Shown in pieces: positions 6,566 to 55,664 of a DNA stretch of 64,000 nucleotides; position 1 is the stretch's first letter, and each line of letters begins with the position of its first letter. The notes beneath the pieces are model-generated. The model was not told where the DNA came from. It saw only the letters and a program-made list of their open reading frames with translations, and did not search any database. A program made the translations under genes and the position numbers. Source of the DNA: an uncultured Candidatus Saccharibacteria bacterium (lineage in GTDB: Bacteria; Patescibacteriota; Minisyncoccia; Phycocordibacterales; Zambryskibacteraceae); contig CAYHLZ010000002.1 in NCBI GenBank assembly GCA_964357635.1, forward strand, positions 513-64,512, in the 5' to 3' direction.

Positions 6566-8269
6566 TTGCTGGTGTATAATATAGCCATGGTTAAGTTCGA
6601 CGAAGAAAAGCAGAAAGATAGGATAAAGGCCCTTCTTCAGAAGGAAGAGGAAGACCTTGCCTCTGCCCTATCGGAGCATCACGGAGTGCCCTACATTGAC
6701 CTCTCAACACATTCGGTAAATATTGACGCCCTACGGGTCATAAAAGAAGCTGATGCGCGAGCCGCTGACTTGGCCGTCTTTAACTCTACGGACAAAAGGA
6801 TTAGTGTTGGCGTCCTTTCAACAAAAAACGAAAAAACTTTGGCCGCTATTGAAGACCTGAAGCTCCGAGGCTACCTCCCTGAAATTTATATGGTCTCACA
6901 CCAAAGCCTTGAGAAAGTTTGGGAGAGATACAAAGATCTTTCGTATTCTTTTGAAACTCAATCTGGCGCCCTTGATATCTCAAACGAAGAAATTCTTAAA
7001 ATAACCCAGAACGTTACCTCGCTTGAAGATATCAAGAAATTAATCTCAGGAGTACTCTCGGAGAAAAAAACTTATCGTATTTCAAAAATTTTAGAAATCA
7101 TTCTAGCTGGAGCTATTAGTTTGAAGGCTTCTGACATTCACCTAGAACCAGAAGAAAAAGATTTGCGTCTACGCTACCGACTGGATGGCGTGCTTACCGA
7201 CATTCTTCATTTTGACTCCGAAACATTTAAGTTGCTTCTCTCCCGCATCAAGCTTGTAAGCGAGCTTAAACTTAATGTTAAAGATAAGGCGCAGGACGGT
7301 CGTTTCTCTATTAAATTGTCCGATGTTGAAATTGAGGTGCGCACCTCGCTTTTACCTGGCCCTTATGGCGAGTCGGTGGTCTTGCGCGTCCTTAATCCAA
7401 ATGCAATTTCCGTTGAGCTTGAAAAACTTGGGATTCACCCACGCCTACTTGAGGCCCTAAGGAAAGAAATTGGAAAACCAAACGGCATGATTCTTACCAC
7501 CGGTCCAACAGGTTCCGGTAAGACCACAACGCTTTATGCTTTCTTAAAAAAGATTTACACACCCGATGTCAAAGTGGTTACCATTGAGAACCCTATTGAA
7601 TATCACCTTGAAGGTATCGTGCAGACCCAAGCAGAAACCGACAAGGGCTACACCTTTGCCGAAGGACTTAGAAGCGCACTTCGTCAGGACCCAGACGTCA
7701 TCATGGTGGGAGAAATTCGCGACAACGAGACTGCCACTGTGGCCATCAACGCAGCCCTCACTGGTCACTTGGTCTTTTCAACACTTCACACCAATAACGC
7801 CGCCGGTGCTTTCCCGCGACTTCTTGATCTTGGTGTCAATTCTAAAGTGATTAGTTCTGCTCTCAATGTTTCTATCGCTCAAAGATTGGTCCGCAAACTC
7901 TGTCAGGTGTGCAAAAAAGAGGCACCCCTAGAAGGTGCAGACAAAGAAACTGTCGCCAGAATTTTGGCCGGCGTCTCTGATCCGACTTATTTAGATAATA
8001 TCCAGAGAGAGCACGCCTGGACCACTGTTGGTTGTCCGGAATGTCTTGGTCTTGGATTTAGGGGACGAATTGGAGTATTTGAGGCGGTGCTGGTGGACCA
8101 CGAGATTGAAAAAGCGGTTATCACCAATCCTTCGGAACGCGACATCCGTGAAGCGGCCAAGAGTCAAAAACTTCTGACTTTGGCCCAAGACGGGGTTATC
8201 AAGGTGCTTACAGGGATCACCACGCTAAAAGAACTTGACCGTGTGGTAGACCTTTCGTCAATAGAATAA
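6566..8269 (+). CDS. GspE/PilB-family secretion ATPase (type II secretion / type IV pilus assembly ATPase); orphan copy
   Basis: Walker A 'GPTGSGKTTTLYAF', Walker B 'DPDVIMVGEIRD', C-terminal CxxC...CxxC tetracysteine; the true start may be GTG 6572 or ATG 6587 (SD AAGAGG lies at 6557-6563). Confidence 0.85.
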   Translation: MLVYNIAMVKFDEEKQKDRIKALLQKEEEDLASALSEHHGVPYIDLSTHSVNIDALRVIKEADARAADLAVFNSTDKRISVGVLSTKNEKTLAAIEDLKLRGYLPEIYMVSHQSLEKVWERYKDLSYSFETQSGALDISNEEILKITQNVTSLEDIKKLISGVLSEKKTYRISKILEIILAGAISLKASDIHLEPEEKDLRLRYRLDGVLTDILHFDSETFKLLLSRIKLVSELKLNVKDKAQDGRFSIKLSDVEIEVRTSLLPGPYGESVVLRVLNPNAISVELEKLGIHPRLLEALRKEIGKPNGMILTTGPTGSGKTTTLYAFLKKIYTPDVKVVTIENPIEYHLEGIVQTQAETDKGYTFAEGLRSALRQDPDVIMVGEIRDNETATVAINAALTGHLVFSTLHTNNAAGAFPRLLDLGVNSKVISSALNVSIAQRLVRKLCQVCKKEAPLEGADKETVARILAGVSDPTYLDNIQREHAWTTVGCPECLGLGFRGRIGVFEAVLVDHEIEKAVITNPSERDIREAAKSQKLLTLAQDGVIKVLTGITTLKELDRVVDLSSIE

Positions 8270-17573: not shown

Positions 17574-18290
17574 ATGTCTTCTTTCTACCACACGGTTTTC
17601 TTTGACCCACTATACAACGGGTTAGTTGTTTTGTTTAAGATTTTACCTTGGGCTGATGCTGGTATTATTGTTATTCTTCTAACTGTTCTGGTTCGTATTA
17701 TTATTTTTCCTCTTTCCAAAAAGGCTATACTTACTCAAGTTAAAATGGCTGAGATTAGCCCGGAACTAGCAAAAATTAAGGAGAAATATAAAGACAAAAC
17801 AGAAGAGCAGGCAAGACAAACCCTCGCTCTTTACAAGGAAAAAGGGGTTAACCCATTTTCTGGAATATTTGTCATTATTATTCAGATTCCTATTATCTTT
17901 GCGTTGTATCAAATCTTTCTTCATCTTCCTGAGGTTAATCCGACTTTTCTATACTCGTTTGTTACTGCGCCAGATTATATCAACACCACCTTTCTTGGGG
18001 TTCTAGACATCACAGCAAAAAGTTTTGCTATTGCAGCTCTGGCAGCAGTTTCAACATTTTTTCAGTTTAAAATTTCTATGAAAGGACAAACCCCGCCAAC
18101 AGGTAACTCCTTCGGCAACAACTTGGCCCGAAGTATGCAGACTCAGATGAAATACTTTTTCCCAGTAATAGTTTTCTTTGTTTCTTATAATATCTCTGGG
18201 GTAATTGCTCTCTACTGGCTTACTACAAATCTTTTTAGTATCGGACAAGAACTTTTTGTTCGTAAGAAAATTAGAGCTCCTCAAGCCTGA
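17574..18290 (+). CDS. yidC: Membrane protein insertase YidC (short Oxa1-like form)
   Basis: Five TM segments in 238 aa with a conserved 'IQIPIIFALYQ' helix; rpmH-rnpA-yidC synteny. Confidence 0.8.
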   Translation: MSSFYHTVFFDPLYNGLVVLFKILPWADAGIIVILLTVLVRIIIFPLSKKAILTQVKMAEISPELAKIKEKYKDKTEEQARQTLALYKEKGVNPFSGIFVIIIQIPIIFALYQIFLHLPEVNPTFLYSFVTAPDYINTTFLGVLDITAKSFAIAALAAVSTFFQFKISMKGQTPPTGNSFGNNLARSMQTQMKYFFPVIVFFVSYNISGVIALYWLTTNLFSIGQELFVRKKIRAPQA

Positions 18291-19515
18291 GTGCCCAGAG
18301 AGTTAGGTCAATTTTGTTTATAAAGATTAAGTAATCTTCGTTTGGAGAAAGTTTTGGCTCTATTACATCGATGCTTCCTAGCTCTGTAGGTAGTTCTAGG
18401 AGAACCTGAGCAACACCAGTGTCAGTGTCAAAAGACCAAACTCTGTCATAAAAAACGCTTACTCCTTTGTACCAGTTATCTGGTTCGTTTATACCAATTT
18501 TGTTTGATGGCACACCACAGAAGACTAACGCTGTGTTTTTTGTACTCCACACACACTTATCGGCAAGGGTGGTAGCCGAAAGTTCATTAATATCATCAGC
18601 AGGAATGTTTTTTACAAACGACAAAGTTTCATTGTTGACGGCGTATGAATACAGCACCCGACTTCCTTGTGTATTAGACAGGGCTGTTAAAGCATTAAAT
18701 GGTCCAAGAATTTTTGTAAATGCCCCACTTGAGGTGTTTAACGAGTATGCATAACCAGGGACACTAAAGCTTGCTTTGGTGTGGACAACCAAGCTGTTGC
18801 CCGAAGTCATAAGACGCCAATTGGTGAAAGGTGAACTGAAAAGAGTTTTGAGACCAGAGCCATTAAACGCAGAAGAAACTATTGAGAGTGAATCTTCCAG
18901 AGAATAGATGAGGTTATCACCAGAGCCAACAGTCACAGAACCAATGTCTCCACGTATTGGAGTTGAGACAACCGTATAAAGCATGTCGGTTTCTGGCGAA
19001 CTTGTTGCTGTTGGTTTTGGTAGAGACAAAGCAAAAGACAAATTTTCTACCAAATCAGTGTCATCTTTAAGAAATCTTACAAGAACAGCCTTACCGTCCG
19101 TCCTAAAGTATGCCTCATAAATCTTCGGCAAGGTTTGGTTGGTAATCTTTGTTTTTTTAAGTGTCAGCAAATCAATCTCATAAATATGACCTGTTGCACG
19201 GTCCACATATCTTGCAACAGTGGTTGATGAATTTTTATTCAGAACCACTGCTCCAGCAACCGGAACATCAGAGAGCTGAAAAAATGTTTTCTCTGAAGAA
19301 TCCTCTTCATTTGAAACAGGTTCTTCGGTGGTTTCTGATGGATTTTCTGTTTCGGTTGTTGAAGAAGGAAGGTCGTCTCCAGAACCAAAGGGCAGAAGCC
19401 CAGAAACTGTTTCACTAAAAGGGGTACCAGAGCTTTTAAGAAACAGATATCCCCCAACTAGCACAGCAAGAAGCAGGATAGAGGTGATTATTATAATTAA
19501 AAACTTTTTTGACAT
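18271..19515 (-). CDS. Hypothetical membrane-anchored beta-rich protein (N-terminal TM, acidic S/T/E-rich linker, propeller-like repeats); last gene of the T4SS-like operon
   Basis: MSKKFLIIIITSILLLAVLVGGYLFL anchor; start overlaps the upstream pilin-like gene region; no recognised catalytic motif. Confidence 0.5.
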   Translation of the reverse strand: MSKKFLIIIITSILLLAVLVGGYLFLKSSGTPFSETVSGLLPFGSGDDLPSSTTETENPSETTEEPVSNEEDSSEKTFFQLSDVPVAGAVVLNKNSSTTVARYVDRATGHIYEIDLLTLKKTKITNQTLPKIYEAYFRTDGKAVLVRFLKDDTDLVENLSFALSLPKPTATSSPETDMLYTVVSTPIRGDIGSVTVGSGDNLIYSLEDSLSIVSSAFNGSGLKTLFSSPFTNWRLMTSGNSLVVHTKASFSVPGYAYSLNTSSGAFTKILGPFNALTALSNTQGSRVLYSYAVNNETLSFVKNIPADDINELSATTLADKCVWSTKNTALVFCGVPSNKIGINEPDNWYKGVSVFYDRVWSFDTDTGVAQVLLELPTELGSIDVIEPKLSPNEDYLIFINKIDLTLWALRLEEL

Positions 19516-19533
19516 AATATTAATTACTCAATT

Positions 19534-20397
19534 CTACGTTTGTGCATGCCAGTGGTTACCACGAGATGTTACCTCGTAAGTAAGTATTCCGATTCCTGGC
19601 ACCAACACCCTTGTTCCGTTTCTAGGACCAGATGCTTCTGAATTAAATTGTGATAAATAAGTATGAAGTGCTTGAGATTGGCGAAGGTCAATTGCTGCTC
19701 GACCGGGACCGTGTGTTTCGTGCCCACCTTCAGAGCCGCCAGTTATTGTTAAAGGGCAACCACAGAGGGTTGCCAACTGCATCACATGAAGAATGGTGGT
19801 TGGTGGTAGACCAACAACGTTTGTGCATCCTTCGGTTTCTCCGTTAACACAAGGACCATTATTTACCGACACGGGAGGTATGTTTTGCCCAAGCACCTGT
19901 CTAATTTGAGCATCTGCTGCCACTTGTTCTGGTGTCAGTGGGTATCCTGGGAGTACGTTACCACCACCTCCTCCAACAACAGGGGCGGGTGCGGTTGGTC
20001 GCGGGGCGCTAAAATTAAAATTCACCAAATCAGGATTAATGCTATTTAGAATAACCCAAGCACCTAATGCTAAAAGTAATCCGCCTATGGCATTTTGAAT
20101 AGTGTTTTTTGCCTCACTTTTTCCGGAAAAGGCGTCAGTGGACATATATTTAATACCACCGACAATTATCATAATAACAGCAAGCACTCCGGCGATGCCG
20201 ATAAGTAGAGAAAAGACGCCGGTGATGTATGGCACAGGACTCGTTCTTCCGCTTCCTTGGGTTGTTTCTGTCCCGGGCAAGGGTGCCAAAAGCTGATAAT
20301 CGGTTTGAGCAAATACTGGCGCGTTGTTAGCAAGTAAAACCAGAACGGCAAATACAAAAGCAATAAAAGCAAATTTTTTCATATTAGTTGTTTTCAT
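19534..20397 (-). CDS. VirB2/TrbC-like pilin-type protein fused to a Cys/His-rich C-terminal domain
   Basis: Signal peptide, then two hydrophobic helices separated by a short charged loop (pilin topology), then about 150 aa containing 'CGCP', 'GGHETHGPGRAAIDL' and 'NHWH'. Confidence 0.5.
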   Translation of the reverse strand: MKTTNMKKFAFIAFVFAVLVLLANNAPVFAQTDYQLLAPLPGTETTQGSGRTSPVPYITGVFSLLIGIAGVLAVIMIIVGGIKYMSTDAFSGKSEAKNTIQNAIGGLLLALGAWVILNSINPDLVNFNFSAPRPTAPAPVVGGGGGNVLPGYPLTPEQVAADAQIRQVLGQNIPPVSVNNGPCVNGETEGCTNVVGLPPTTILHVMQLATLCGCPLTITGGSEGGHETHGPGRAAIDLRQSQALHTYLSQFNSEASGPRNGTRVLVPGIGILTYEVTSRGNHWHAQT

Positions 20398-21094
20398 ATT
20401 GTATTAAGAAATTTTTATTGGCAAACTGCGTAACCTGGTACGTGTTTGATACACGCGCACGTATACTTGAAGCTCCTTTGGCATCATCGGGGGTGCGATA
20501 CGTTACCGAACTCCCCGTGTCTGTGCCCCCAACATTAGTGCCCCATTCGTACTTCAAAACATCGTCAGTGCGATCAAAAACACTAAAGAAAAAAGGAAAA
20601 GCCGTAAAAGTAACTTCTTTCCCCTCTAATTTATAGGTATTACCTACCTCTTTGTTGAATTTAAATCCATAAAGAGGATTGTTTTCATATATATAAAGAG
20701 AGGGCGTTAACGGGGTAATCTTAGTGGAGGCGCTTGCCAACACCGTTTTTTGACCATACTCGTCTGAAGAAGAAGAGATGATTTCTACCTTGATGGTTTG
20801 GGGTTTTGAAAGAATTGAGTCAAGAAAAGATATAGTATTTTTGCCAATCCCGTTTAAATTACCCAAAACTGTGCCAGTTTTTGTCCACTTATAGTTTAAG
20901 CTAGCTGGGTTACCGAGGCCGTGAGGTATTGCTACAAGAGTAATCCTAGACTGGCTTGACCACAGTGTCCTGCCTTTATAAAACGGAGGAACATAATTTT
21001 CTCCTTGCCAAAGAAGATCTACTTCTTGAGCCTTTAGAAAAGTTGTTGGCAGGATAAGTAGAGCAAGTACCAAAAGGAGAAAGGTTTTCTTCAT
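20384..21094 (-). CDS. Secreted hypothetical protein (signal peptide MKKTFLLLVLALLILPTTFLKA), beta-rich
   Basis: ORF within the T4SS-like operon; probable start at the internal Met at 21094, which precedes the signal peptide. Confidence 0.5.
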   Translation of the reverse strand: MKKTFLLLVLALLILPTTFLKAQEVDLLWQGENYVPPFYKGRTLWSSQSRITLVAIPHGLGNPASLNYKWTKTGTVLGNLNGIGKNTISFLDSILSKPQTIKVEIISSSSDEYGQKTVLASASTKITPLTPSLYIYENNPLYGFKFNKEVGNTYKLEGKEVTFTAFPFFFSVFDRTDDVLKYEWGTNVGGTDTGSSVTYRTPDDAKGASSIRARVSNTYQVTQFANKNFLIQYENN

Positions 21095-21135
21095 CCCCTT
21101 ATTATAACGAATCCTTTGGCAATTTTCTTTTGACA

Positions 21136-23007
21136 TTATTGACTTGTTGCTCCGGCCTCTTTTAACTCTCTTTGAGCTGCCTCCACGGCTGTTTCTTGGT
21201 TTTCTTCCGCTTCTTGTTTTGCCTTTTTAATAGCAAGCACTTGCGAGGGGTCGGAAGTGATAATCTGGTCTTCTGTATATGAAGCGATGTTTTTTATGGC
21301 AACGTGTTTTAGTCCAGCAAAAAAGATTCCTTCTCCCCTATCTGACTCCAGAAGCAAATATTTTTCCTCGTCTGTGAGATTAAAGGTTTTTTGAAGCTCG
21401 TCTATGATGGTGGGAGACTGCTTCATGAGAATCTGTATAGAAGAGTTGGTAATAATTGGCAAACCATAAGGACTCTTCAAGAAGTCGCCGACATCTTGCG
21501 TTATTGTCGCAACACCGAGGAAATATTTTCTTCCTCGCTTGACGAGTCCCATGAGGAAGGAAGCAGTGTCTTCCGATTTCATCATCCACCACGCCTCGTC
21601 TATAACCAAGAGACGTTTTTTGAGTTCTTTTCTGATAACGTTCCAAATATAGTGGGTAACAATGTACATGGCGATGGGCTTGAGTTCATCCTCCATGTCT
21701 CGCAGAGAGAAGACCACAAACTTTTTATTTATATCAACATTTGATGGTCTGTTGATAAATCCGGACCAAGTGCCTTTCGTATATTTGGAAAGTCTTTGAG
21801 CAAGAGATTCTCCACCCTCCATACCAGCAAGCACCATTTCAAAGTCAGACATTAAAGGAGGTTCAATATTACGAAAGTCTGAATCGGCAGTAATATCCTT
21901 GAGAGCGTATGTTTCAGTGATGGCGCGGTCAATAATAGCGTCTTCCTCAGCAGTTAAGCCACCCATCATTAGTCGGAAAAGACCGACTAGGTTAATAATA
22001 TTTGAGCGAAGCACGTTTGCCGTGCTCTCGTCTGGTCCAGGTATCGGTAGGTCAAAAGGATTTATATGGTGTTCTGAGTTAAGAGAGATTTTAAAATATC
22101 TACCACCTGTTGCTTCTGCCATGTACTCATACTCTCGCTCCGGATCTATCACGATCACTTCCGTGTCAAACATCAAGGTACGCAATATCTCAAGTTTTGT
22201 GGCATAAGATTTACCAGCACCAGACTTGGCAAACATAATTGAGTTGTAGTTTTCAAGAGAGAAGCGGTCAAAGAGCACCAAAGATGAGTTGTGCCTATTG
22301 ATACCATAAAGAATTCCCTTGTCTGAAGTTAGGTCAAAGGAGGTGAATGGGAAAAGAGAGGAAAGTGGAGAGGAGTTGAGCTTAGAATGCACCTCAAGAA
22401 GGTCGTTGCCAAGAGGAATGGTGCTTTTGTATCCCTGTTCTTGTTGGAAAAGAGCCGGTTTTACATAAATAAGTTTTGCTTCAAGAATAGATTTAATTTC
22501 TGACTCAACCTTATCTAACTCTGCGGCACTATCACCATAAATAGTGATATAAAGACCGACGTCAAAAAGTTTTTCCTGTGCTTGTTGAAGCTGGTCTCGC
22601 AGATTCTCAAGGTCTTGATAGGCAACGTCAAGCACTGGGTCACGCACCAACCCCTTTTCTTCTCTGCCGTGGATCTGACTTTGCACCTCGGCAACTTTTC
22701 TCTGGAACTGGCGCAACACCTTTGAAGTCTCAATAGGGTGAACAAAGATTGAGACATCAAAAACCTTGTCCATGTTAATAATGGGAGAAAACCAACCCTC
22801 GGAAAGAAAACGCGGATACGAAATAACAAAGAAACTTCTTAAAACCTTCTCACCAAGATTAATCTCCTTAGGTGTGACCTTGAGGGCCGATGGCGCAATA
22901 ATATCTTTGAGCTCCAGCACCCCTGCTTCAAAAATTTCTTTAGGCAAAATAGAAGAAATATCAGTCTTTGTTTCTTTTTTCTTAAATAATGAATCAAAAA
23001 TTGCCAT
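21136..23007 (-). CDS. VirB4/TrbE/CagE-family conjugation-type ATPase, C-terminal ATPase portion (split gene)
   Basis: Walker A 'FAKSGAGKSYATK', Walker B 'LLVIDEAWWM'; N-terminal 'IAPSALKV...SYPRFLSEGWF' matches the segment that follows the VirB4 N-domain. Confidence 0.8.
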   Translation of the reverse strand: MAIFDSLFKKKETKTDISSILPKEIFEAGVLELKDIIAPSALKVTPKEINLGEKVLRSFFVISYPRFLSEGWFSPIINMDKVFDVSIFVHPIETSKVLRQFQRKVAEVQSQIHGREEKGLVRDPVLDVAYQDLENLRDQLQQAQEKLFDVGLYITIYGDSAAELDKVESEIKSILEAKLIYVKPALFQQEQGYKSTIPLGNDLLEVHSKLNSSPLSSLFPFTSFDLTSDKGILYGINRHNSSLVLFDRFSLENYNSIMFAKSGAGKSYATKLEILRTLMFDTEVIVIDPEREYEYMAEATGGRYFKISLNSEHHINPFDLPIPGPDESTANVLRSNIINLVGLFRLMMGGLTAEEDAIIDRAITETYALKDITADSDFRNIEPPLMSDFEMVLAGMEGGESLAQRLSKYTKGTWSGFINRPSNVDINKKFVVFSLRDMEDELKPIAMYIVTHYIWNVIRKELKKRLLVIDEAWWMMKSEDTASFLMGLVKRGRKYFLGVATITQDVGDFLKSPYGLPIITNSSIQILMKQSPTIIDELQKTFNLTDEEKYLLLESDRGEGIFFAGLKHVAIKNIASYTEDQIITSDPSQVLAIKKAKQEAEENQETAVEAAQRELKEAGATSQ

Positions 23008-23008
23008 A

Positions 23009-23665
23009 TTAGGTTACTTTAATCGGCTTCTCTGTCTCGCCCGGGTTAAATGCTTTGTAGAAAAGCTCAATAACTTCTTCTGTACCAAGACGAACCACAC
23101 GAATGCCGGTTCGTATTAGTCCTTGCTCTACCACTGACAAACGTTCTTCAAGCTGGCTTCTGTCCTCGTCAAAACTTGCTTCAGTCTTACTGGATTTATC
23201 ATTATCGGTACCAAGTCCTAGACGTGAAGTAATGCCACTGGCAATACCTCCGCTTGACTGGCTGGTTGATAAAATGGCGGGACTATAAGGCACCACGATA
23301 AAGAAGTGTTTGGTCATAATGTTTGTGTTCTCGGTGAAGTTTTTGATGAATTCAATGTATTCTCTCACCTGAATCTTCATTAAATTGTTCGTCTGGTTTT
23401 TCTCTTGTCCCTCTAGAAGAGCGATGTAGGGGCGGATATCAAGTTTGCGAGATTGCACCACTATCTCAATAGAGAAATCAAGAGAATTTAGAAAATCTTG
23501 GAATTGGAAGAGAATTGCCTGCTTCTCATCTTCCGATTTTAGAGAAAAGTTTAAGGACGAGCAGAGAAGGATAGAGCGCATGCCTCCGTCTTTGAGGATG
23601 ACAGTACCGTCCCGCACCTCTTTGATGGGAACAAATTCTTGGGTAGCGTTTGTAGTAGGAGCCAT
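23009..23665 (-). CDS. VirB4-family N-terminal domain (CagE/TrbE/VirB-type) encoded as a separate ORF
   Basis: 'VPIKEVRDGTVILKDGGMRSILLCSSLNFSLKSEDEKQAILFQFQDFLNSLDFSIEIVVQSRKLD' and '...EEVIELFYKAFNP' match the VirB4 N-domain; stop TAA and next ATG form TAAtATG, a 1-nt gap in a different frame. Confidence 0.65.
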   Translation of the reverse strand: MAPTTNATQEFVPIKEVRDGTVILKDGGMRSILLCSSLNFSLKSEDEKQAILFQFQDFLNSLDFSIEIVVQSRKLDIRPYIALLEGQEKNQTNNLMKIQVREYIEFIKNFTENTNIMTKHFFIVVPYSPAILSTSQSSGGIASGITSRLGLGTDNDKSSKTEASFDEDRSQLEERLSVVEQGLIRTGIRVVRLGTEEVIELFYKAFNPGETEKPIKVT

Positions 23666-23672
23666 GCCTCAA

Positions 23673-24104
23673 TTATACCTTATCCTCGGTGTTTTCCGTT
23701 GTAGGATTAACGTTTTCTTTAATATCTAGGCTCCAACTAAGATCTCTAAGCTTTGATTCCGATAGTTTGGGTACATAGACTTGGTCTAAAGGTTTTGCAT
23801 CTCTTGGTCCGGCAACTGGCTTCTTCTCTTCCTTCTTCCAGAGATAGAGCTTGTTGGTCAAGGTGTATTTAACAAAAGCTTCTACTACGTTTATAAACGG
23901 TTTGCCGTTGATTTTGTAAAACGCCAATGCTCCAGCGAAGGCAAGTATGGGTAATGCAATTAAAATCGCTAAAAATTTTGGTAAAAGAATGAACAAAACG
24001 ACAGCAATACCAGCTCCACCAGCAACATAAATAAATTGCTTAAAGGTCATAGGGCCAAAAATCTTGTCTTCAATCTCTATAAATTGTGGTACTTGAAAGC
24101 GCAT
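23673..24104 (-). CDS. PrgI/VirB3-like small membrane protein
   Basis: 'MRFQVPQFIEIEDKIFGPMTFKQFIYVAGG' followed by two TM helices; sits just upstream of VirB4 as in Gram-positive T4SS. Confidence 0.55.
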   Translation of the reverse strand: MRFQVPQFIEIEDKIFGPMTFKQFIYVAGGAGIAVVLFILLPKFLAILIALPILAFAGALAFYKINGKPFINVVEAFVKYTLTNKLYLWKKEEKKPVAGPRDAKPLDQVYVPKLSESKLRDLSWSLDIKENVNPTTENTEDKV

Positions 24105-24113
24105 AAATTTATT

Positions 24114-24647
24114 TTACACTAACGGCTCTCTATACGGATCCTTTCCTTCTCCATATCTATAATCTGGCAAAGACGTCTTCGTTTCTTTTGGTTTCGGCGG
24201 TTCTCCGCCCGACTCCAGCCCGACAAAGTCATTCTGGCGGGGAACGACTTCAGTCGTTCGGGCGGGCTCTACATGTGGCACGCTGTGCGCCACCTCACCC
24301 TCTTCTACCATGGGCAGGTTATCACCAGAAACTTTTTTCTCCCCAATACTTTTTTCCACAATTGGACCAAGAATTTTCTCAGCGACAGAGTCTCCAATTT
24401 TGTTGGCTGTTTCTTGGGACACACTAACTGCCCGTATAATGTTTTGTACAAAATCATCCGGGTTCTCAAACGCATATAGAACAAACATAGTTTCCTGTTC
24501 AAGAGAAACTATTTGTTCGGGGTCTAAAGCATTACTTTTACCAATTTCCTCTACCAACGCTTTCCAAGGCAGGGCACTAATTGCCTGTTGCAGATTGGAG
24601 GGCAACTTATCAAACTGTTCTTTTATAAGTTTTTCTTCTTCGTTCAT
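24114..24647 (-). CDS. Hypothetical acidic cytoplasmic protein in the T4SS-like operon
   Basis: 177-aa ORF overlapping the upstream gene by 4 nt; no known motif. Confidence 0.45.
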   Translation of the reverse strand: MNEEEKLIKEQFDKLPSNLQQAISALPWKALVEEIGKSNALDPEQIVSLEQETMFVLYAFENPDDFVQNIIRAVSVSQETANKIGDSVAEKILGPIVEKSIGEKKVSGDNLPMVEEGEVAHSVPHVEPARTTEVVPRQNDFVGLESGGEPPKPKETKTSLPDYRYGEGKDPYREPLV

Positions 24648-26830
24648 GGTGTAGATGTTGTTCCTCCGGAAGGTGGTGGGGGTGTTGATGGTGGAGTTGC
24701 TTCTGGCGTTTCTTCTTCAGGCAAATCTCCTGATTCTTTGGCAACATCTTTATATGCCTCGATTAATTTGTCTTTTTTACTCTTTCCTGTTCTTATTCGA
24801 GCTGCCGCAGCATAGTTATAACCAGCAAGTTTTGCCCAAGGGGATCTTTCCACCATATCTGCATATTTACCTTTTCGTATTTCTGCCGCTGGTTGTATTT
24901 CCTTCAGGCTTTCTATTTGTTTGTCATAAGCAGCGGATATTATCTTTGTGTCTTCCTCTATTTTTTCTCTTGCCCTAATCGTCTCTTTCTTTAATGTCTT
25001 AAGTTTTTCTCTTTCAATGTCCAATTCTTTTAACTTTTCTGTTTTGACTCCAAAGTCAGCTGTTTCTAGTTCTCCTTCTAGTTTAGATATGGCATCAGAT
25101 GATGCTTTTTCTTTTGCTTCAGTCGCCCTCAATTGCTCTTTATTTTTTTCTTCCTTTTTCTTTATATCCGCCTGTTTGTTTGTTTCCGCTTCCTGTCTTT
25201 TTTTCTTTATCTCCTCTTTGTTACCCAACAGATTATCAAGTTTTTGTTTAGCCTGAAGCGCCTGTGGCGAAGTTTCTCCAAATTTTGTTTTTGCGTTATC
25301 ATATTCAGCTTTTGCCTTAGCCCTTGCTTTATCTGATGGGGCATATGATTCCGCCACCTTTGCTGCTTTTTCAGATTGTGCTTTTCTGTATCCAGAAAAA
25401 CCATCTTTAGTACCCTTGAACACTTTAGAATCAGCATCAAGAACACCTCCCAATCCGCCAGGAGCATTTCTTGCATCATAGCTTGCTGACCCACCCTTTC
25501 TTCCTGCCCAAAGAGCAAGTCTTGCACTTCGACTACCCTCAGCAGCTTTTCCTTTAAAGTACTCGCTTTCAGATACTGCGGTTGCTGCTCTACCAACCGT
25601 TTGTCTACCAGCAAACGCCGCTGTTCCGACAACAGCACCAGTCAAGAATTTGGTTGCGTTCGTTACATTTGAACCAGCCTTGTTTGCCCACGATTTGGCG
25701 ATACTAAGAGCAGCAAGGAGAAAGACAATCACAATCATAAAGTTCATAAACATAGCAAACGCTCCACTGGAAAGGGCAACTATCTCCTGCCCCCGCTCAC
25801 CTACAGCCGCAAGAGCGCCAAACTCGGTAACGGCACCTCCCGCCGAACCCAAAGAGGTCCTAATACCCCTTAGAACCTCAACCGCAATCCAAAGAATCAT
25901 AAAAAATATAGGGGCAAAAAACGCTTGCCCCACCAGAGTTTCTTTCCACTTATCTGCTGCTCCGCGTAGTGCCGGTAAAACAAAGGCAATAAAAGCTATA
26001 GGAGAAAGAATTAATACCAAAATTAAAACCACATAACGCACAATAAGCATGATTGCCATAGAGAAGAAGACAAAGGCGGAAATGACAAGCATGATAGAGC
26101 CCATCATAGTTATAGTGAGTATGGTTCCATTGCCGAGAGTGCCTCCGCTAAAGCTGTAAAGACTTTGCAAATTTAATTGTTGCATAAAAGCGTTTGAAAG
26201 ACCGCGTGATGACAGGGCGGTTGTGAGGTCAGTTAGAGTTCCGGAAGGTATGATTAGATCGTGGAAAAAGAGAGCCAATATATTGGCGGCATCAATGACC
26301 AGTTTGGTGAAGAAGAGACTGAAGTTTATAAGTATGGCAACGATGATGACGTTAACAATTAGTTTCTTGGTATCGCTTCCTACTCCCAAGATGGTTCGTA
26401 TCGCTGCATACAGGAGGATAAATATAAAACCCATGTTGGCGAGGTCACGGACGGCATCCCATGCATTATTTATGGCGGTTTCGTTAGCAGCATAGTTGTC
26501 AGACATGCTGATGACTGTGAAATAGACCACTGCATTTAAAACAACTCCGGCCAGGCCTGTCAAAAATCCCATAAACTGAAGGATTGACTCTGCCAAGGGA
26601 ATGACAACCCATGACATTATTTCGCACCCAAAATCAAACACCTCTGGACACAGTCCCTCCGATGATGCCCCTGACGGTTGGTCAGGTATACAACCGGGCT
26701 GAGGATCGACAGAGCACGGTGGTGGGGCTTGAGCCAATGTTGTTTGAGGAGCAATAAATCCACTTGTAGTAAAAACAATTACAAGAACGAAAAATAAAGC
26801 CGAAAATTTTTTCCAATACTTTTTCATCAA
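24644..26830 (-). CDS. VirB6/TrbL-like polytopic membrane protein with a long C-terminal K/E-rich coiled-coil and Pro-rich tail
   Basis: Signal peptide, Cys-rich extracellular segment (CSVDPQPGCIPD...CPEVFDFGCE), at least six TM helices, then about 250 aa of lysine/glutamate-rich repeats ending TPPSTPPPPSGGTTSTP. Confidence 0.55.
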   Translation of the reverse strand: MMKKYWKKFSALFFVLVIVFTTSGFIAPQTTLAQAPPPCSVDPQPGCIPDQPSGASSEGLCPEVFDFGCEIMSWVVIPLAESILQFMGFLTGLAGVVLNAVVYFTVISMSDNYAANETAINNAWDAVRDLANMGFIFILLYAAIRTILGVGSDTKKLIVNVIIVAILINFSLFFTKLVIDAANILALFFHDLIIPSGTLTDLTTALSSRGLSNAFMQQLNLQSLYSFSGGTLGNGTILTITMMGSIMLVISAFVFFSMAIMLIVRYVVLILVLILSPIAFIAFVLPALRGAADKWKETLVGQAFFAPIFFMILWIAVEVLRGIRTSLGSAGGAVTEFGALAAVGERGQEIVALSSGAFAMFMNFMIVIVFLLAALSIAKSWANKAGSNVTNATKFLTGAVVGTAAFAGRQTVGRAATAVSESEYFKGKAAEGSRSARLALWAGRKGGSASYDARNAPGGLGGVLDADSKVFKGTKDGFSGYRKAQSEKAAKVAESYAPSDKARAKAKAEYDNAKTKFGETSPQALQAKQKLDNLLGNKEEIKKKRQEAETNKQADIKKKEEKNKEQLRATEAKEKASSDAISKLEGELETADFGVKTEKLKELDIEREKLKTLKKETIRAREKIEEDTKIISAAYDKQIESLKEIQPAAEIRKGKYADMVERSPWAKLAGYNYAAAARIRTGKSKKDKLIEAYKDVAKESGDLPEEETPEATPPSTPPPPSGGTTSTP

Positions 26831-26833
26831 TAA

Positions 26834-28273
26834 TTATCTTTGAACAGTGACATATTGTGTGGTCGCACCATTTCCGTTAGAACAAGTGAGAATGAAGGTC
26901 ATTATAGGGTCTGTTACTCGCACGGACTCTCCTCCACTAAGAGCCTTAGGACCACTCCAACCCCCAGAGGCTGTGCAGGAAGTAGCGTTGGTAGCTGTCC
27001 AGTCAAGCGAAGCGATGGTAAAGAACGGAAGTTCCAGACGCTCAGCACTAAAGGTAACTACAGGGAGCGCTCCTCCGCCCCCACCTCCGAAACCTCCTCC
27101 AGGGACGGCGACATTAACGGAACGAGAAGTCGGTCCATAAGTATTTGTGCATGTAATAGAATATGTCTGACTTGCCGTTAAACTTGGAGTTAACTCTGTT
27201 CCACTTAGTGCTCTGGGACCACTCCAGCCACCGGATGCGACACAGTAGCTGGCATTGGTGGAAGACCAGGTTATGGTTGCTGTGCCGTTAAGTGCCACTG
27301 TGGTTGGGAAAGCATTGAGAGTCACCGTGGGTGCCAGAGGGTTGCTACCCACTGGTGGTGGAACACCCCCACCTCCACCTCCACCTCCACCTCCACCCCC
27401 ACCACTTAAGAGTCCTTGGGCACCAAAGACAAATCTTTGCAGGAGTTGACCGATGAGCGCGCTCACAAGCTCGTCAAACTCGTCTGCCAACTCAAGCTGT
27501 CTCACGCCAGTTCCTAAAACATTTTCAAGTTGTTTCTCAATTACTACACCAGGTGTTTGGGCATCACCCCAATCTAGACATGTGTTTGTGCCGTCAGTAC
27601 TTCGCCTTTCACACGGAGCGAATGTTAAGAAACCACTGCTCCAACTAAGTTGTTCTTTCTGAAGACCCAAGGCCTCTCTAAGTCGGGAGTTAAGTTCAAT
27701 CCGAGCTTCAACATACGACCCATACGGGTTATTGGCCCTGTTTTGTGTCATGGAAAACCATCCGTCCCATCCTCCTTGGTCAAAATCATCGTAGAAACCT
27801 TCAATATTTCCAACTACGTCAGACAAAGTACATTGAAATTGATAGTCTGACGAACCGATTCCTCCGCTGTTATAGGAATTCCTAAGAGATAATCTAATTT
27901 GAGTTTGAAAAGGTGAGCAAAGAAAGTTAAGATCAGTACCGTCGATAAACTCTCCAGCAAGCCCATCAGCAAGGTTGGTGAAAAACTGTTCCGGATTTCT
28001 TACAAAGGCGGGGCTCCCTTCAAAACCTTCATTTATCCACTCAATAGTGGAGTTCAAAATGCTTTCTATCAGGGTTCTGGCAAGAGTTATCGCGACAAGG
28101 TCAAGAGTTAGTCCGGGGACAAAGTATCCGAACGCGGTTATGCCCACCTCTTTTACAGTATTTGCTTGGTCCACAGTGGGGATTCCATATTGCGCCCCGG
28201 TCTTAGTTGGTAGGATAGGAACAAAGAGTATTACGATTAGCAGGAGGGCCAAAATGCGATTTTTATAATTCAT
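26834..28273 (-). CDS. Secreted protein with poly-Gly linkers and two Ig-like repeats (shared with the protein at 50063)
   Basis: Signal peptide; 'GGGGGGGGGGGGG' tract; repeats 'TNASYCVASGGWSGPRALSG' and 'TNATSCTASGGWSGPKALSG'. Confidence 0.55.
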   Translation of the reverse strand: MNYKNRILALLLIVILFVPILPTKTGAQYGIPTVDQANTVKEVGITAFGYFVPGLTLDLVAITLARTLIESILNSTIEWINEGFEGSPAFVRNPEQFFTNLADGLAGEFIDGTDLNFLCSPFQTQIRLSLRNSYNSGGIGSSDYQFQCTLSDVVGNIEGFYDDFDQGGWDGWFSMTQNRANNPYGSYVEARIELNSRLREALGLQKEQLSWSSGFLTFAPCERRSTDGTNTCLDWGDAQTPGVVIEKQLENVLGTGVRQLELADEFDELVSALIGQLLQRFVFGAQGLLSGGGGGGGGGGGGGVPPPVGSNPLAPTVTLNAFPTTVALNGTATITWSSTNASYCVASGGWSGPRALSGTELTPSLTASQTYSITCTNTYGPTSRSVNVAVPGGGFGGGGGGALPVVTFSAERLELPFFTIASLDWTATNATSCTASGGWSGPKALSGGESVRVTDPIMTFILTCSNGNGATTQYVTVQR

Positions 28274-29064
28274 ATATTACTGTTAAACATTATACCATTC
28301 GTGATAAGCACACTCTGAATATTTGTGAGAATATCTGATTCTAACTTAGTATTTTTCGCATAGTGATTCAGAGCGGCGTATGCTTTCGCTGGGTTTTTGG
28401 AACTGTCACTAACTAGTTTCAACGCCTCGGCATTTTCTAAGTAGTTATTTATAAGATCAAGATGATAAGAAGATAGAGAAACCGGCACTCCCACCAAGAG
28501 AAGCTCACTTGCCGCTGCCTGGAAGAACTTAGAAGTGGCTGACATGAATGAAGAGAAAGCAGGACTCGAAATATCTGAAAAATCGCGACCAGAAGCTTGG
28601 GCTGCCACCAAATTTTTATACTTACTGCGGATTGCCGTTAAACTTGCGCCATATGCCGCCATATTTTCTTCGTTATCGGGTACTACTATAACTTGATTTA
28701 AAAGGACTTTTGGTGCGGACAACTTAAAGCTTAGGATATCTTCGGCGTATTTATCGGCAAGGTTTAAGATATTTTCTCCAGAGATCTGACCCTGGGACTT
28801 AAGTGACATGTAGTCGGTAAAAATTTGCCTGCTTAAGAGTTCTTCTTGTGAAAGAGTAGTGGTGGAAAAAGCTCTCGTGGGTGTCGTAGAAGAACTTAAA
28901 AAGTCTTTCAAAAAGGCGTCGTCGGATGCAAACTCTAGAGGAGCTTGAACAGAGACCAAGGTAGCGGAATAAGGAGGAATTTTTATAAATCTAAACCACA
29001 GTGCCCCACCGATAAGAGCAAGAGACAAGAAAAGGGCGCCGATAAGACGAATTGACGGCATCAT
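28270..29064 (-). CDS. Membrane-anchored hypothetical protein (possible VirB8-like bitopic component); first gene of the operon
   Basis: N-terminal TM 'LIGALFLSLALIGGALWF', about 230-aa periplasmic-type domain; no motif recognised. Confidence 0.4.
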   Translation of the reverse strand: MMPSIRLIGALFLSLALIGGALWFRFIKIPPYSATLVSVQAPLEFASDDAFLKDFLSSSTTPTRAFSTTTLSQEELLSRQIFTDYMSLKSQGQISGENILNLADKYAEDILSFKLSAPKVLLNQVIVVPDNEENMAAYGASLTAIRSKYKNLVAAQASGRDFSDISSPAFSSFMSATSKFFQAAASELLLVGVPVSLSSYHLDLINNYLENAEALKLVSDSSKNPAKAYAALNHYAKNTKLESDILTNIQSVLITNGIMFNSNI

Positions 29065-53909: not shown

Positions 53910-55664
53910 ATGCATATTGACGAATCTAAGCTTGAGAGTTTTATGGTTGACTCTGGACTTGTCTCCAAGAAGGAGATTGAGCTTGCCAGAAGTGAGGCTA
54001 AGAAGAAAGACGTAAGTATCGGAACAGTACTTGTAAACAAAGGGTCACTGACAGAAGATGATCTTCGTCGGATGCAAGCCTACATTCTTGGCATTCCTTT
54101 TGTTGACCTAAAGAATCAGAAATTGGATTTCTCCGTGCTTTCTTTGATACCTGAACCAATTGCGAGAAATCACAATATTGTCGCCTTTAAAAAGATTAAT
54201 GACCACCTTGAAGTGGCGATGCTTGATACCGAGGACCTGACTGCCATAGATTTCGTTAAGAAAAAGGTCGGATTAAGGATTTTGCCGCGCCTGACAGATG
54301 ACGAGTCTATGAAGTGGGCACTCCTTTCTTATCAAAAAACTCTTAAGGCAGAATTTGGAGATATTATTCAAAAAGAAGCGGGCTCACTTACAGCTCTAAG
54401 TGACGGGACAGGTGACGAAGATCTTGCCGAAGGAGATTTGAAAAAACTAGCAACCGATATCCCCGTAGTTCGCATTGTTGACACTCTACTCAAGCACGCC
54501 ATCATTCAAGATGCTTCCGATATTCACATTGAACCACAGGAGGATAGAGTCTTGGTGCGGTACCGTATAGACGGCATACTGCGTGACGCCATGATTCTAC
54601 CGAAAAATACTGGTCCAGGTATCACCGCTCGTCTCAAGGTTCTCTCTAGTCTTAAACTAGACGAGAAACGTCTTCCTCAAGATGGGCGATTTAAAATTGA
54701 TGTTGAAGGAGAAAAAGTTTCTTTCAGAGTCTCAACTCTACCAACTTATTATGGAGAGAAAACTGTGATGAGGCTTCTGCGCGAGACCGTTTCTGGCTTT
54801 ACCTTAGAGAGTCTCGGGTTTCACAGTAGGGGACTTGAACAACTGCACAAGGCGCTCAAGGTTACAACGGGCATGATTCTTGCCACTGGTCCGACAGGTT
54901 CTGGTAAGACCACAACTCTCTACACCATGCTTGATATTGTTAATACTCCCAACGTTAACATCTCAACCATAGAAGACCCTGTTGAATACCAAATGACCCG
55001 CGTAAACCAAACGCAGGTGCATCCAGAGATTGGACTTACTTTTGCTAACGGTCTTAGGACCCTAGTGCGTCAAGATCCAGATATAATTATGGTCGGAGAA
55101 ATCCGAGACAACGAGACCGCAGCGCTCGCTATTAACGCTTCGCTTACTGGTCACCTTGTACTTTCAACTCTTCACACTAACTCTGCTGCAGGGGCCATAC
55201 CAAGACTTCTAGACATGAAGGTGGAGCCGTTTCTTTTGGTTTCTACCCTAGATATTGTTATTGCCCAACGTCTCATAAGGAAACTTGCTTCATCCAAGAC
55301 CAAATATTTCTTGAACAAAGAAGAGCTTGCATCCCTTGGCAACGCTGTTTCTTTAGACAGAGTTTTGGGATTTCTTAGAGAAGAAAAAATTATAGACAAA
55401 AAAGATGATTGGGACAAAATTACTTTTTGGAAACCAAATCCGGGCAAGGATTCTGAAGACGGGTACGCCAGTCGTATTGGTATACATGAAGTATTAAATG
55501 TTACTCCAACTATTAAAAGCCTGATTATGAAAGGAGCCACGGCGGGGGAGATAGAAGAACAGGCAAAATCAGAAGGCATGATGACCATGATTGAAGATGG
55601 CATTTTCAAGGCAGCACAAGGCATCACCACTATTGAAGAAGTCCTAAGAGTAGTTTCCGAATAA
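53910..55664 (+). CDS. pilB: Type IV pilus assembly ATPase PilB (GspE family)
   Basis: Walker A 'GPTGSGKTTTLYTM'; GspE N-domains; immediately followed by pilC and pilin genes. Confidence 0.85.
   Translation: MHIDESKLESFMVDSGLVSKKEIELARSEAKKKDVSIGTVLVNKGSLTEDDLRRMQAYILGIPFVDLKNQKLDFSVLSLIPEPIARNHNIVAFKKINDHLEVAMLDTEDLTAIDFVKKKVGLRILPRLTDDESMKWALLSYQKTLKAEFGDIIQKEAGSLTALSDGTGDEDLAEGDLKKLATDIPVVRIVDTLLKHAIIQDASDIHIEPQEDRVLVRYRIDGILRDAMILPKNTGPGITARLKVLSSLKLDEKRLPQDGRFKIDVEGEKVSFRVSTLPTYYGEKTVMRLLRETVSGFTLESLGFHSRGLEQLHKALKVTTGMILATGPTGSGKTTTLYTMLDIVNTPNVNISTIEDPVEYQMTRVNQTQVHPEIGLTFANGLRTLVRQDPDIIMVGEIRDNETAALAINASLTGHLVLSTLHTNSAAGAIPRLLDMKVEPFLLVSTLDIVIAQRLIRKLASSKTKYFLNKEELASLGNAVSLDRVLGFLREEKIIDKKDDWDKITFWKPNPGKDSEDGYASRIGIHEVLNVTPTIKSLIMKGATAGEIEEQAKSEGMMTMIEDGIFKAAQGITTIEEVLRVVSE

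Follow-up and report, generated by a model that had tools for sequence, protein, structure and literature searches.

Is the VirB4 ATPase of an uncultured Candidatus Saccharibacteria bacterium made as two proteins by nature, or does its gene merely look divided? The question is raised by a 64,000-nucleotide stretch of contig CAYHLZ010000002.1 (hereafter the window, meaning the whole stretch that was analysed), on the minus strand of which two abutting open reading frames (ORFs) carry VirB4-like sequence: ORF1 (23009..23665), encoding a TraC-like / TrsD-like protein of 218 aa, and ORF2 (21136..23007), encoding a short-form VirB4 of 623 aa. An earlier note, made from the letters and their translations, had offered a natural split, a frameshift or assembly error, and a pseudogene as explanations, and had favoured the first. 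We find that the pair is very probably a natural two-gene VirB4, in which ORF1, a TraC-like protein of remote TrsD type, provides as a detached chain the first ~200 residues of the N-terminal domain (NTD) of VirB4, and ORF2 comprises the second half of that domain together with the RecA-like ATPase domain.

The junction and its conservation

The two ORFs meet at TAAtATG (23005..23011, minus strand), where the stop codon of ORF1 is followed by a 1-nt spacer and then by the start codon of ORF2, which lies in the +1 frame relative to ORF1 (GTA ACC TAA t ATG GCA). The C-terminal end of ORF1 reads IELFYKAFNPGETEKPIKVT before the TAA stop, the N-terminal start of ORF2 reads MAIFDSLFKKKETKTDISSILPKEIFEAGVLELKDIIAPSALKV, and the ATG of ORF2 is the earliest start codon past the upstream stop in its frame. 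The ORF coordinates and the junction letters therefore bear out the earlier description of two abutting ORFs, of 218 and 623 aa, in different frames. The Logan assemblies of two separate sequencing runs extend across the junction without a mismatch to the window, over 2582 nt for ERR3858120 and over 1998 nt for ERR3858121, and the NCBI annotation likewise lists separate genes, MEK7176987.1 (218 aa, 'hypothetical protein') and MEK7176988.1 (623 aa, 'DUF87 domain-containing protein'). The junction is genuine and not an assembly artefact.

A search for homologues of ORF1 among 5.8 billion proteins gave at least 8000. The best 120 are all 212-230 aa long, and 149 of the 150 top representatives (50% clustering) are without the ATPase part. 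Eighty related genome loci (63-86% identity to ORF1) were compared, 79 of which could be scored; in all 79, a stop codon follows the ORF1 homologue and a separate ORF2 homologue comes after it (65-94% identity). The spacing between the two genes ranges from -4 to +491 nt, with 57 loci at -4 to +6 nt, 14 at 7-80 nt, one at 113 nt and seven at 421-491 nt. Relative to ORF1, the ORF2 homologue is in frame 0 at 16 loci, in frame 1 at 37 and in frame 2 at 26, all three kinds of stop codon are found at the ends of the ORF1 homologues, and the N-terminus of ORF2 (MGIF/MSIF...) is conserved in the relatives exactly from the start codon. The variable spacing, frame and stop codons indicate two long-established cistrons and exclude a shared frameshift error or a single recoding mechanism. 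The non-synonymous substitution rate (dN) was 0.08-0.18 for ORF1 and 0.05-0.09 for ORF2, with synonymous sites saturated and omega ~0.04 where calculable, and 32 columns are invariant among 145 ORF1 homologues. Both halves are under strong purifying selection, and the low dN alongside saturated synonymous sites excludes a pseudogene. The comparison with orthologous loci that the earlier note had proposed thus shows the split to be conserved in every locus scored, and the lengths of the ORF1 homologues and the selection on both halves agree with its preference for a natural split into two polypeptides: these are two separate conserved cistrons, which usually abut.

Translational coupling of ORF1 and ORF2 is plausible, judging by the 1-nt spacer; it is dispensable in the seven relatives that have a gene inserted between the cistrons. 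A Shine-Dalgarno-like match of at least 5 nt, no more than 20 nt upstream of the start codon, was found for 4 of 55 window genes, and 22 of the 55 have no upstream match of 3 nt or longer; translation initiation in the source genome seems largely independent of such motifs. Because they are so few in this genome (4/55), the missing motif before ORF2 is uninformative on coupling.

These results bear on three ways in which a single gene might come to look like two. A sequencing or assembly frameshift that cut one virB4 in half would fit the 1-nt spacer and the change of frame, which resemble a single-base indel, as well as the existence of single-chain relatives of ~790 aa. We nevertheless put its probability close to nil, because the junction is identical in two run assemblies over 2.0-2.6 kb, the split recurs in 79/79 relatives with differing spacings, frames and stop codons, a whole extra gene lies between the halves in seven of them, and the MGIF/MSIF terminus of ORF2 is conserved right at the start codon. 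A recently broken and decaying virB4 would account for the interrupted reading frame and for nothing else; with both halves intact in every relative at 63-94% amino-acid identity, with dN far below the saturated synonymous rate in each half, and with the 32 invariant ORF1 columns and both Walker motifs of ORF2 preserved, a pseudogene is vanishingly improbable. The assembly-error, frameshift and pseudogene options of the earlier note are therefore contradicted by the run assemblies, the relatives and the dN values. Programmed recoding, through a +1 frameshift or stop read-through that yields a single-chain VirB4, would suit ORFs that abut and the fused proteins known from Candidatus Colwellbacteria, but no single conserved mechanism could operate across three frames (16/37/26), distances between an overlap of 4 nt and a gap of 491 nt, and varied stop codons, and the listed junctions of relatives show no conserved slippery sequence. 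We regard this explanation, too, as highly improbable, and retain the natural two-gene VirB4.

Position of the break in VirB4

The larger protein is readily recognized. ORF2 scores above the cut-off of NF045971 (VirB4-like conjugal transfer ATPase, CD1110 family; 377.1 versus 325 bits), with its residues 29-573 aligned to positions 183-736 of the 752 in the CD1110 profile, of which positions 1-182 are absent from ORF2, and Pfam places P-loop_TraG (91.7 bits), AAA_10 and DUF87 on it. Both Walker motifs that the earlier note had read from the 623-aa ORF were located: Walker A, AKSGAGKS, at residues 260-267 (22207..22230, minus strand), and Walker B, LLVIDEAW, at residues 466-473 (21589..21612, minus strand). 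The C-terminal ATPase domain in the VirB4 crystal structure from T. pseudethanolicus (4AG5) aligns to ORF2 227-584 (E 4.6e-41), its Walker A falling on that of ORF2, and residues 292-735 of TrwK, the VirB4 of R388, align to ORF2 117-551. ORF2 thus has the RecA-like ATPase domain with Walker A and B that is expected of a VirB4, and it would be expected to hydrolyse ATP and to form hexamers.

The NTD of TrwK comprises residues 15-400 (Mace et al. 2022, PMC9259494). Given these limits, the 4AG5 and TrwK alignments imply that ORF2 retains ~225 residues of the NTD. The split, at roughly TrwK residue 175-200, falls mid-domain and ~225 residues ahead of the ATPase domain. ORF1 covers the N-terminal profile positions and ORF2 1-226 the remainder of the domain; a complete VirB4 NTD is found only in ORF1 and ORF2 jointly. 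The earlier note had put the split exactly at the boundary between the N-domain and the ATPase domain, which these alignments and the structural model described next show to be wrong. The segments that it had given as the edges of the two ORFs do belong to them, but not as their ends, since 10 ORF1 residues follow FYKAFNP and 35 ORF2 residues precede IIAPSALKV.

A fused relative of 797 aa from Candidatus Colwellbacteria (P0215) carries both parts in one chain. ORF1 7-214 aligns on its residues 7-215 and ORF2 28-598 on its residues 225-796, and the Pfam domain TraC_F_IV bridges the split position (residues 169-394). In its AlphaFold model (mean predicted local distance difference test, pLDDT, 75), the secondary-structure elements of ORF1 recur in residues 1-207 and are followed by a lower-confidence linker at the split site (208-235), a second module (239-420), a low-confidence break between the NTD and the ATPase domain (422-452) and the ATPase domain itself; the model matches full-length TrwK with a template modelling (TM) score of 0.66 over ~870 columns. 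Fused and split forms have linkers that differ in length and make-up, with 17-30 residues in fused chains and ~40 distributed over two chain ends in the window, and the motifs that flank the linker are kept, ELFYxxYNP...EK before and D-I/V-I/V-AP after. The break lies in this variable linker. Alignment to a full-length VirB4, which the earlier note had proposed as a check for missing residues, indicates with P0215 that none are missing at the junction and that ORF1 plus ORF2 is co-linear with the full protein. A sequence profile of the fused forms, searched against the PDB, aligned with TrwK over the ATPase domain alone and did not map the split site.

The smaller protein is less easily placed. 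ORF1 and all its listed homologues carry PF26593 ('TraC-like') in the precomputed Pfam tables. A local Pfam scan of ORF1 gave no match at E up to 10, and PF26593 is evidently absent from that copy, which also missed it in P0215, a carrier according to the precomputed tables. The CagE_TrbE_VirB domain (PF03135), which the earlier note had assigned to the 218-aa ORF, was not detected in ORF1 at E up to 10 or in ORF2 at E up to 0.01. A PDB sequence search with ORF1 gave no meaningful match, and VirB4 was reached there by the fold search only. As pairwise BLASTP against pSK41 TrsD was not significant, profile methods were needed for that comparison. NCBIfam aligns ORF1 residues 5-125 with the N-terminal parts of full-length VirB4 families, through positions 101-233 of 894 in VirB4_plasma (E 4.7e-13) and positions 2-118 of 752 in CD1110. 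Among 78 diverse ORF1 homologues, matches were obtained to VirB4_plasma in all 78, to TrsD/TraD in 66, to CD1110 in 57 and to TIGR00929 (VirB4_CagE) in 27, and hhalign aligned the ORF1-family profile with TrsD of pSK41 over 175 columns (E 1.3e-4). The AlphaFold model of ORF1 (pLDDT 79, core >90, disordered at 132-153 and 210-218) retrieved 14 TrwK/VirB4 chains of the R388 type IV secretion system (T4SS) from the PDB, with probability 0.99-1.00, and no match with E below 0.1 beyond these chains. Some ORF1 homologues already bear related labels: 'type IV secretory pathway VirB4 component' at JGI and, for one at NCBI, 'TraC family protein'.

Several points weigh against reading ORF1 as a TrsD-type portion of VirB4. 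It reaches 24.8 bits (E 1.7e-5) with TrsD/TraD (NF041427), short of the curated cut-off of 200 bits; the hhalign probability for the ORF1 family versus pSK41 TrsD is only 54%; and pairwise BLASTP between ORF1 and that protein is not significant (E 0.34). On these scores, the link of ORF1 to the curated TrsD/TraD family is remote. The TM scores of the ORF1 model against TrwK (0.34-0.52) are moderate, and the matched TrwK residues were not reported by the tool. According to a survey of Patescibacteria T4SSs (Quinonero-Coronel et al. 2025, PMC12102498), no function has been ascribed to TrsD in any system, and binding of ORF1 to ORF2 or to the neighbouring PrgI-family protein is something that we infer.

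Two further features of the ORF1 family were observed. Residues 132-153 of ORF1 (23207..23272, minus strand) form a Ser/Gly-rich insert, predicted to be disordered (pLDDT <50), which separates the long C-terminal helix from the final core strand; its equivalent in the fused relative (residues 131-156) is disordered as well, and the segment is poorly conserved across the family. Among the TraC-like/TrsD-like representatives P0232, P0182, P0238 and P0218, some have N-terminal extensions of 60-145 residues and others C-terminal extensions of 100-220 residues, in which no PrgI or VirB4 ATPase similarity and no Pfam match was found. A PrgI-TrsD fusion had been suspected for representatives that match from residue 58-146 onwards, and was rejected when neither BLASTP nor Pfam gave any PrgI similarity.

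Proposed assembly of the pair, fused relatives and insertions

In the R388 system, VirB3 wraps the VirB4 NTD, and the NTDs mediate VirB4 dimer contacts (PMC9259494). Directly upstream of ORF1, the window encodes a PrgI family (VirB3-like) membrane protein of 143 aa (23673..24104, minus strand; PF12666, E 5e-13, 49.8 bits versus a cut-off of 27). By analogy with R388, the ORF1 and ORF2 chains would assemble non-covalently as a VirB4-like unit, in which the ORF1 module would complete the N-terminal layer close to the membrane, where docking onto PrgI (VirB3) takes place, and ORF2 would act as the hexameric motor. The tight spacing of the genes probably aids co-expression, although it is dispensable. 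Because the two genes are fused in Colwellbacteria, a physical interaction between ORF1 and ORF2 may be expected by the Rosetta-stone argument.

Alternatively, ORF1 could be an independent accessory protein of VirB4 N-terminal descent that has ceased to act as a portion of VirB4, for example an adaptor or regulator that has a stoichiometry or partners of its own. The lack of an assigned function for TrsD would suit such a protein, as would the Gracilibacteria, whose TrsD homologues are mostly not beside virB4 (PMC12102498). ORF1 also evolves faster than ORF2 (63-86% versus 65-94% identity, with a dN about twice as high), contains the variable disordered insert at 132-153, and has unrelated N- or C-terminal extensions on some of its representatives. 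Against this stand the adjacency of ORF1 and ORF2 in 79/79 loci, the re-fusion in Colwellbacteria, which keeps the co-linearity and the full TrwK-like fold, and the C-terminal motif ELFYxxYNP, which is common to the split, fused and pSK41 forms. We consider a separate accessory role unlikely, and prefer the reading of ORF1 and ORF2 as two chains of one VirB4.

Fusion of the two chains is tolerated in one clade. The single-chain VirB4 proteins of 775-807 aa (~790), which come mostly from Candidatus Colwellbacteria (P0215, P0393-P0511), carry both PF26593 and the ATPase domains, and a Colwellbacteria single-chain gene (locus L085:544-2937) follows PrgI immediately, with dnaA close by. The N-module was placed in a rough neighbour-joining tree, which was built by distance from 220 columns, was rooted on two Firmicutes sequences and serves as a lead only. 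In it, the large fused clade is compact in 92/100 bootstraps and nested among split forms in 96/100; this suggests that the Colwellbacteria single chain may be a secondary fusion. Two proteins of ~600 aa inside the fused clade, P0411 and P0507, resembled fresh re-splits; P0411 proved to be an artefact of a 100-N scaffold gap within a fused gene (L084:1545-1647), a case that calls for care when surveys sort split from fused forms by length.

The gap between the two genes is itself occupied in some genomes. In 7/79 relatives, a same-strand insert of 420-490 nt separates the TrsD-like gene from virB4 (L002:4640-5107, L025:4637-5127, L030:4643-5093, L047:4637-5100, L058:4640-5060, L071:4640-5086 and L075:4315-4756), and each insert codes for one four-helix-bundle protein of 114-125 aa. 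Pfam PF05635 (23S_rRNA_IVP) was found on the two products scanned (E 1.8e-24 and 5.9e-33), and the other five were assigned to it by visible sequence resemblance. A scan for inverted repeats covered three of the seven inserts, those of L002, L025 and L058: imperfect inverted repeats of 34 nt flank the inserts of L025 and L058, and no flanking pair was reported for L002, where repeats were seen by eye only. The spacers of L065 and L074 (62-72 nt) consist of nothing but such palindromes; the 74-nt spacer of L077 was outside the scan. The presence of several divergent insert sequence types suggests that insertion may have occurred repeatedly at one intergenic point.

A broader proposal draws support from two of these observations, namely that the Colwellbacteria form is nested among split forms in 96/100 bootstraps and that the gap is a recurrent landing site, in several lineages, for inverted-repeat-flanked 23S_rRNA_IVP cassettes resembling intervening sequences. 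The entire Patescibacteria / pGO1-type VirB4 lineage might descend from a two-gene ancestor, in which case the N-terminal module of ~200 residues would be an autonomous subunit that has become covalently joined to the motor again at least once. We offer this as a tentative idea that is more probably wrong than right. If the split were indeed ancestral, the module might be an exchangeable adaptor between PrgI/VirB3 and the ATPase, and not a fixed part of VirB4.

Genomic setting and known systems

ORF1 and ORF2 belong to a ten-gene cluster on the minus strand that holds the T4SS genes (18271..29064), with intergenic distances of -14 to +18 nt. The cluster is probably one operon and a chromosomal T4SS locus; a promoter and terminator scan across it gave counts at chance level and no signal at the ORF1/ORF2 junction. 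It is flanked by yidC, dnaA and dnaN on one side and by ksgA and uvrD on the other. In addition to the PrgI family protein, it encodes a T4SS pilin-like protein of 287 aa (19534..20397, minus strand), with a VirB2-like N-terminal part and a C-terminal part without assignment (Pfam T4SS_pilin, 31.2 bits versus a cut-off of 26.6; NCBIfam Mbov_0395 pilin-like, E 1e-7, 31.5 bits, under the cut-off of 40), and a polytopic membrane protein of 728 aa (24644..26830, minus strand) that is tentatively described as weakly VirB6/TrbL-like (Pfam TrbL, E 0.0031, 17.7 bits, short of the 25.9-bit cut-off). The inner-membrane partners expected beside a VirB4 are therefore present, with PrgI and pilin above their cut-offs and a weak VirB6/TrbL match. 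Pfam was run on 28 of the window ORFs, and in none of these was a relaxase or a VirD4 domain detected.

The pilin-like protein (19534..20397) has a C-terminal extension of ~150 residues with GGHETHGPGRAAIDLR and a terminal HWH. No Pfam or NCBIfam match was obtained for this extension, and a PDB sequence search of the C-terminal half (19534..20010) was blank. By eye, it would resemble metallopeptidase (cell-wall hydrolase) motifs, and the protein could be a putative pilin-hydrolase fusion that replaces VirB1. Outside the cluster, two T2SSE-family ATPases of the type II secretion / type IV pilus type are encoded on the plus strand (6566..8269 and 53910..55664), one with an MshEN domain. Patescibacteria have been reported with both type IV pili and T4SSs, and the two ATPases in the window fit this pattern.

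For annotation, the 'hypothetical protein' and the 'DUF87 domain-containing protein' of this metagenome-assembled Patescibacteria genome are to be read jointly as the VirB4 unit of a chromosomal T4SS. The finding opens no new question, as the TrsD-plus-VirB4 layout has been published, and what it adds is modest: the strict co-linearity with full VirB4, the location of the break in a linker inside the NTD, and the fused Colwellbacteria form. The last of these favours models of monoderm T4SSs in which TrsD-like proteins are a detached subdomain of VirB4. Beyond the literature found, the single-chain Colwellbacteria form and the 23S_rRNA_IVP gene in the junction of 7/79 relatives are small additions; in the passages searched of PMC12102498, the co-linearity of TrsD plus short VirB4 with full VirB4 is not spelled out and the single-chain Colwellbacteria form is not mentioned.

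The arrangement of TrsD beside a short VirB4 is already known from the staphylococcal plasmids pGO1/pSK41, as TrsD + TrsE (TraD + TraE), and from Patescibacteria. In pGO1/pSK41 (MPF_FATA, pGO1 subclass), the order is a VirB3/PrgI-like gene, a TrsD of ~220 aa and a VirB4-like ATPase of ~620-670 aa, as in the window; in pSK41 itself, a CagC/VirB2-like gene and a 135-aa gene are followed by trsD (227 aa) and by the 672-aa DUF87 ATPase TrsE. TrsE aligns with ORF2 from residue 5 of TrsE and residue 8 of ORF2 to the end (E 7e-33, 22% identity). As ORF2 is co-linear with TrsE from the first residues, the break falls at a position homologous to that between TrsD and TrsE. For pSK41 TrsD and the ORF1 family, the 175 aligned columns include the C-terminal FYxxY motif and were reached by profile methods only; the longer ELFYxxYNP at the C-terminal end of ORF1 is kept in the split, fused and pSK41 forms. 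The settings differ, in that the window locus is chromosomal and lies beside dnaA, whereas pSK41 is a conjugative plasmid with a relaxase and VirD4. A tblastn search of plasmids with ORF1 also retrieved ~25-31% identical 'hypothetical proteins' in Firmicutes megaplasmids. In pJFP838A of C. perfringens, the ORF1-like protein is encoded between a PrgI-family gene and a VirB4-like ATPase, and in a Pontibacillus plasmid it is encoded between an unannotated small ORF, in the PrgI position, and a VirB4-like ATPase (621-641 aa in the two plasmids).

Single-chain VirB4 proteins, such as TrwK of R388, the TraC-type proteins and the Colwellbacteria form of ~790 aa, have the same fold and domain order in one polypeptide instead of two. 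The VirB3-VirB4 fusions of some conjugative systems likewise show that covalent linkage within the VirB3/VirB4 unit is variable (PMC12102498); they differ in that neighbours are fused, the opposite of fission, and that survey found none in Patescibacteria. The window also matches the Patescibacteria systems described there, in which TrsD stands by virB4 with PrgI/VirB3, a VirB6-like protein and a VirB2-like pilin and without a relaxase, often near dnaA, dnaN and ksgA. TrsD is treated there as a remote homologue of the VirB4 N-terminus. No other T4SS component is as abundant in Patescibacteria: 2,272 homologues are counted, and 1,664 of these are found in association with virB4. Ca. S. epibionticum has one that is listed as essential, and the T4SS is reported to be essential for a cultivated relative to grow epibiotically (PMC12102498). 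The window locus is one more example of these surveyed Patescibacteria T4SSs, from which it shows no substantive difference.

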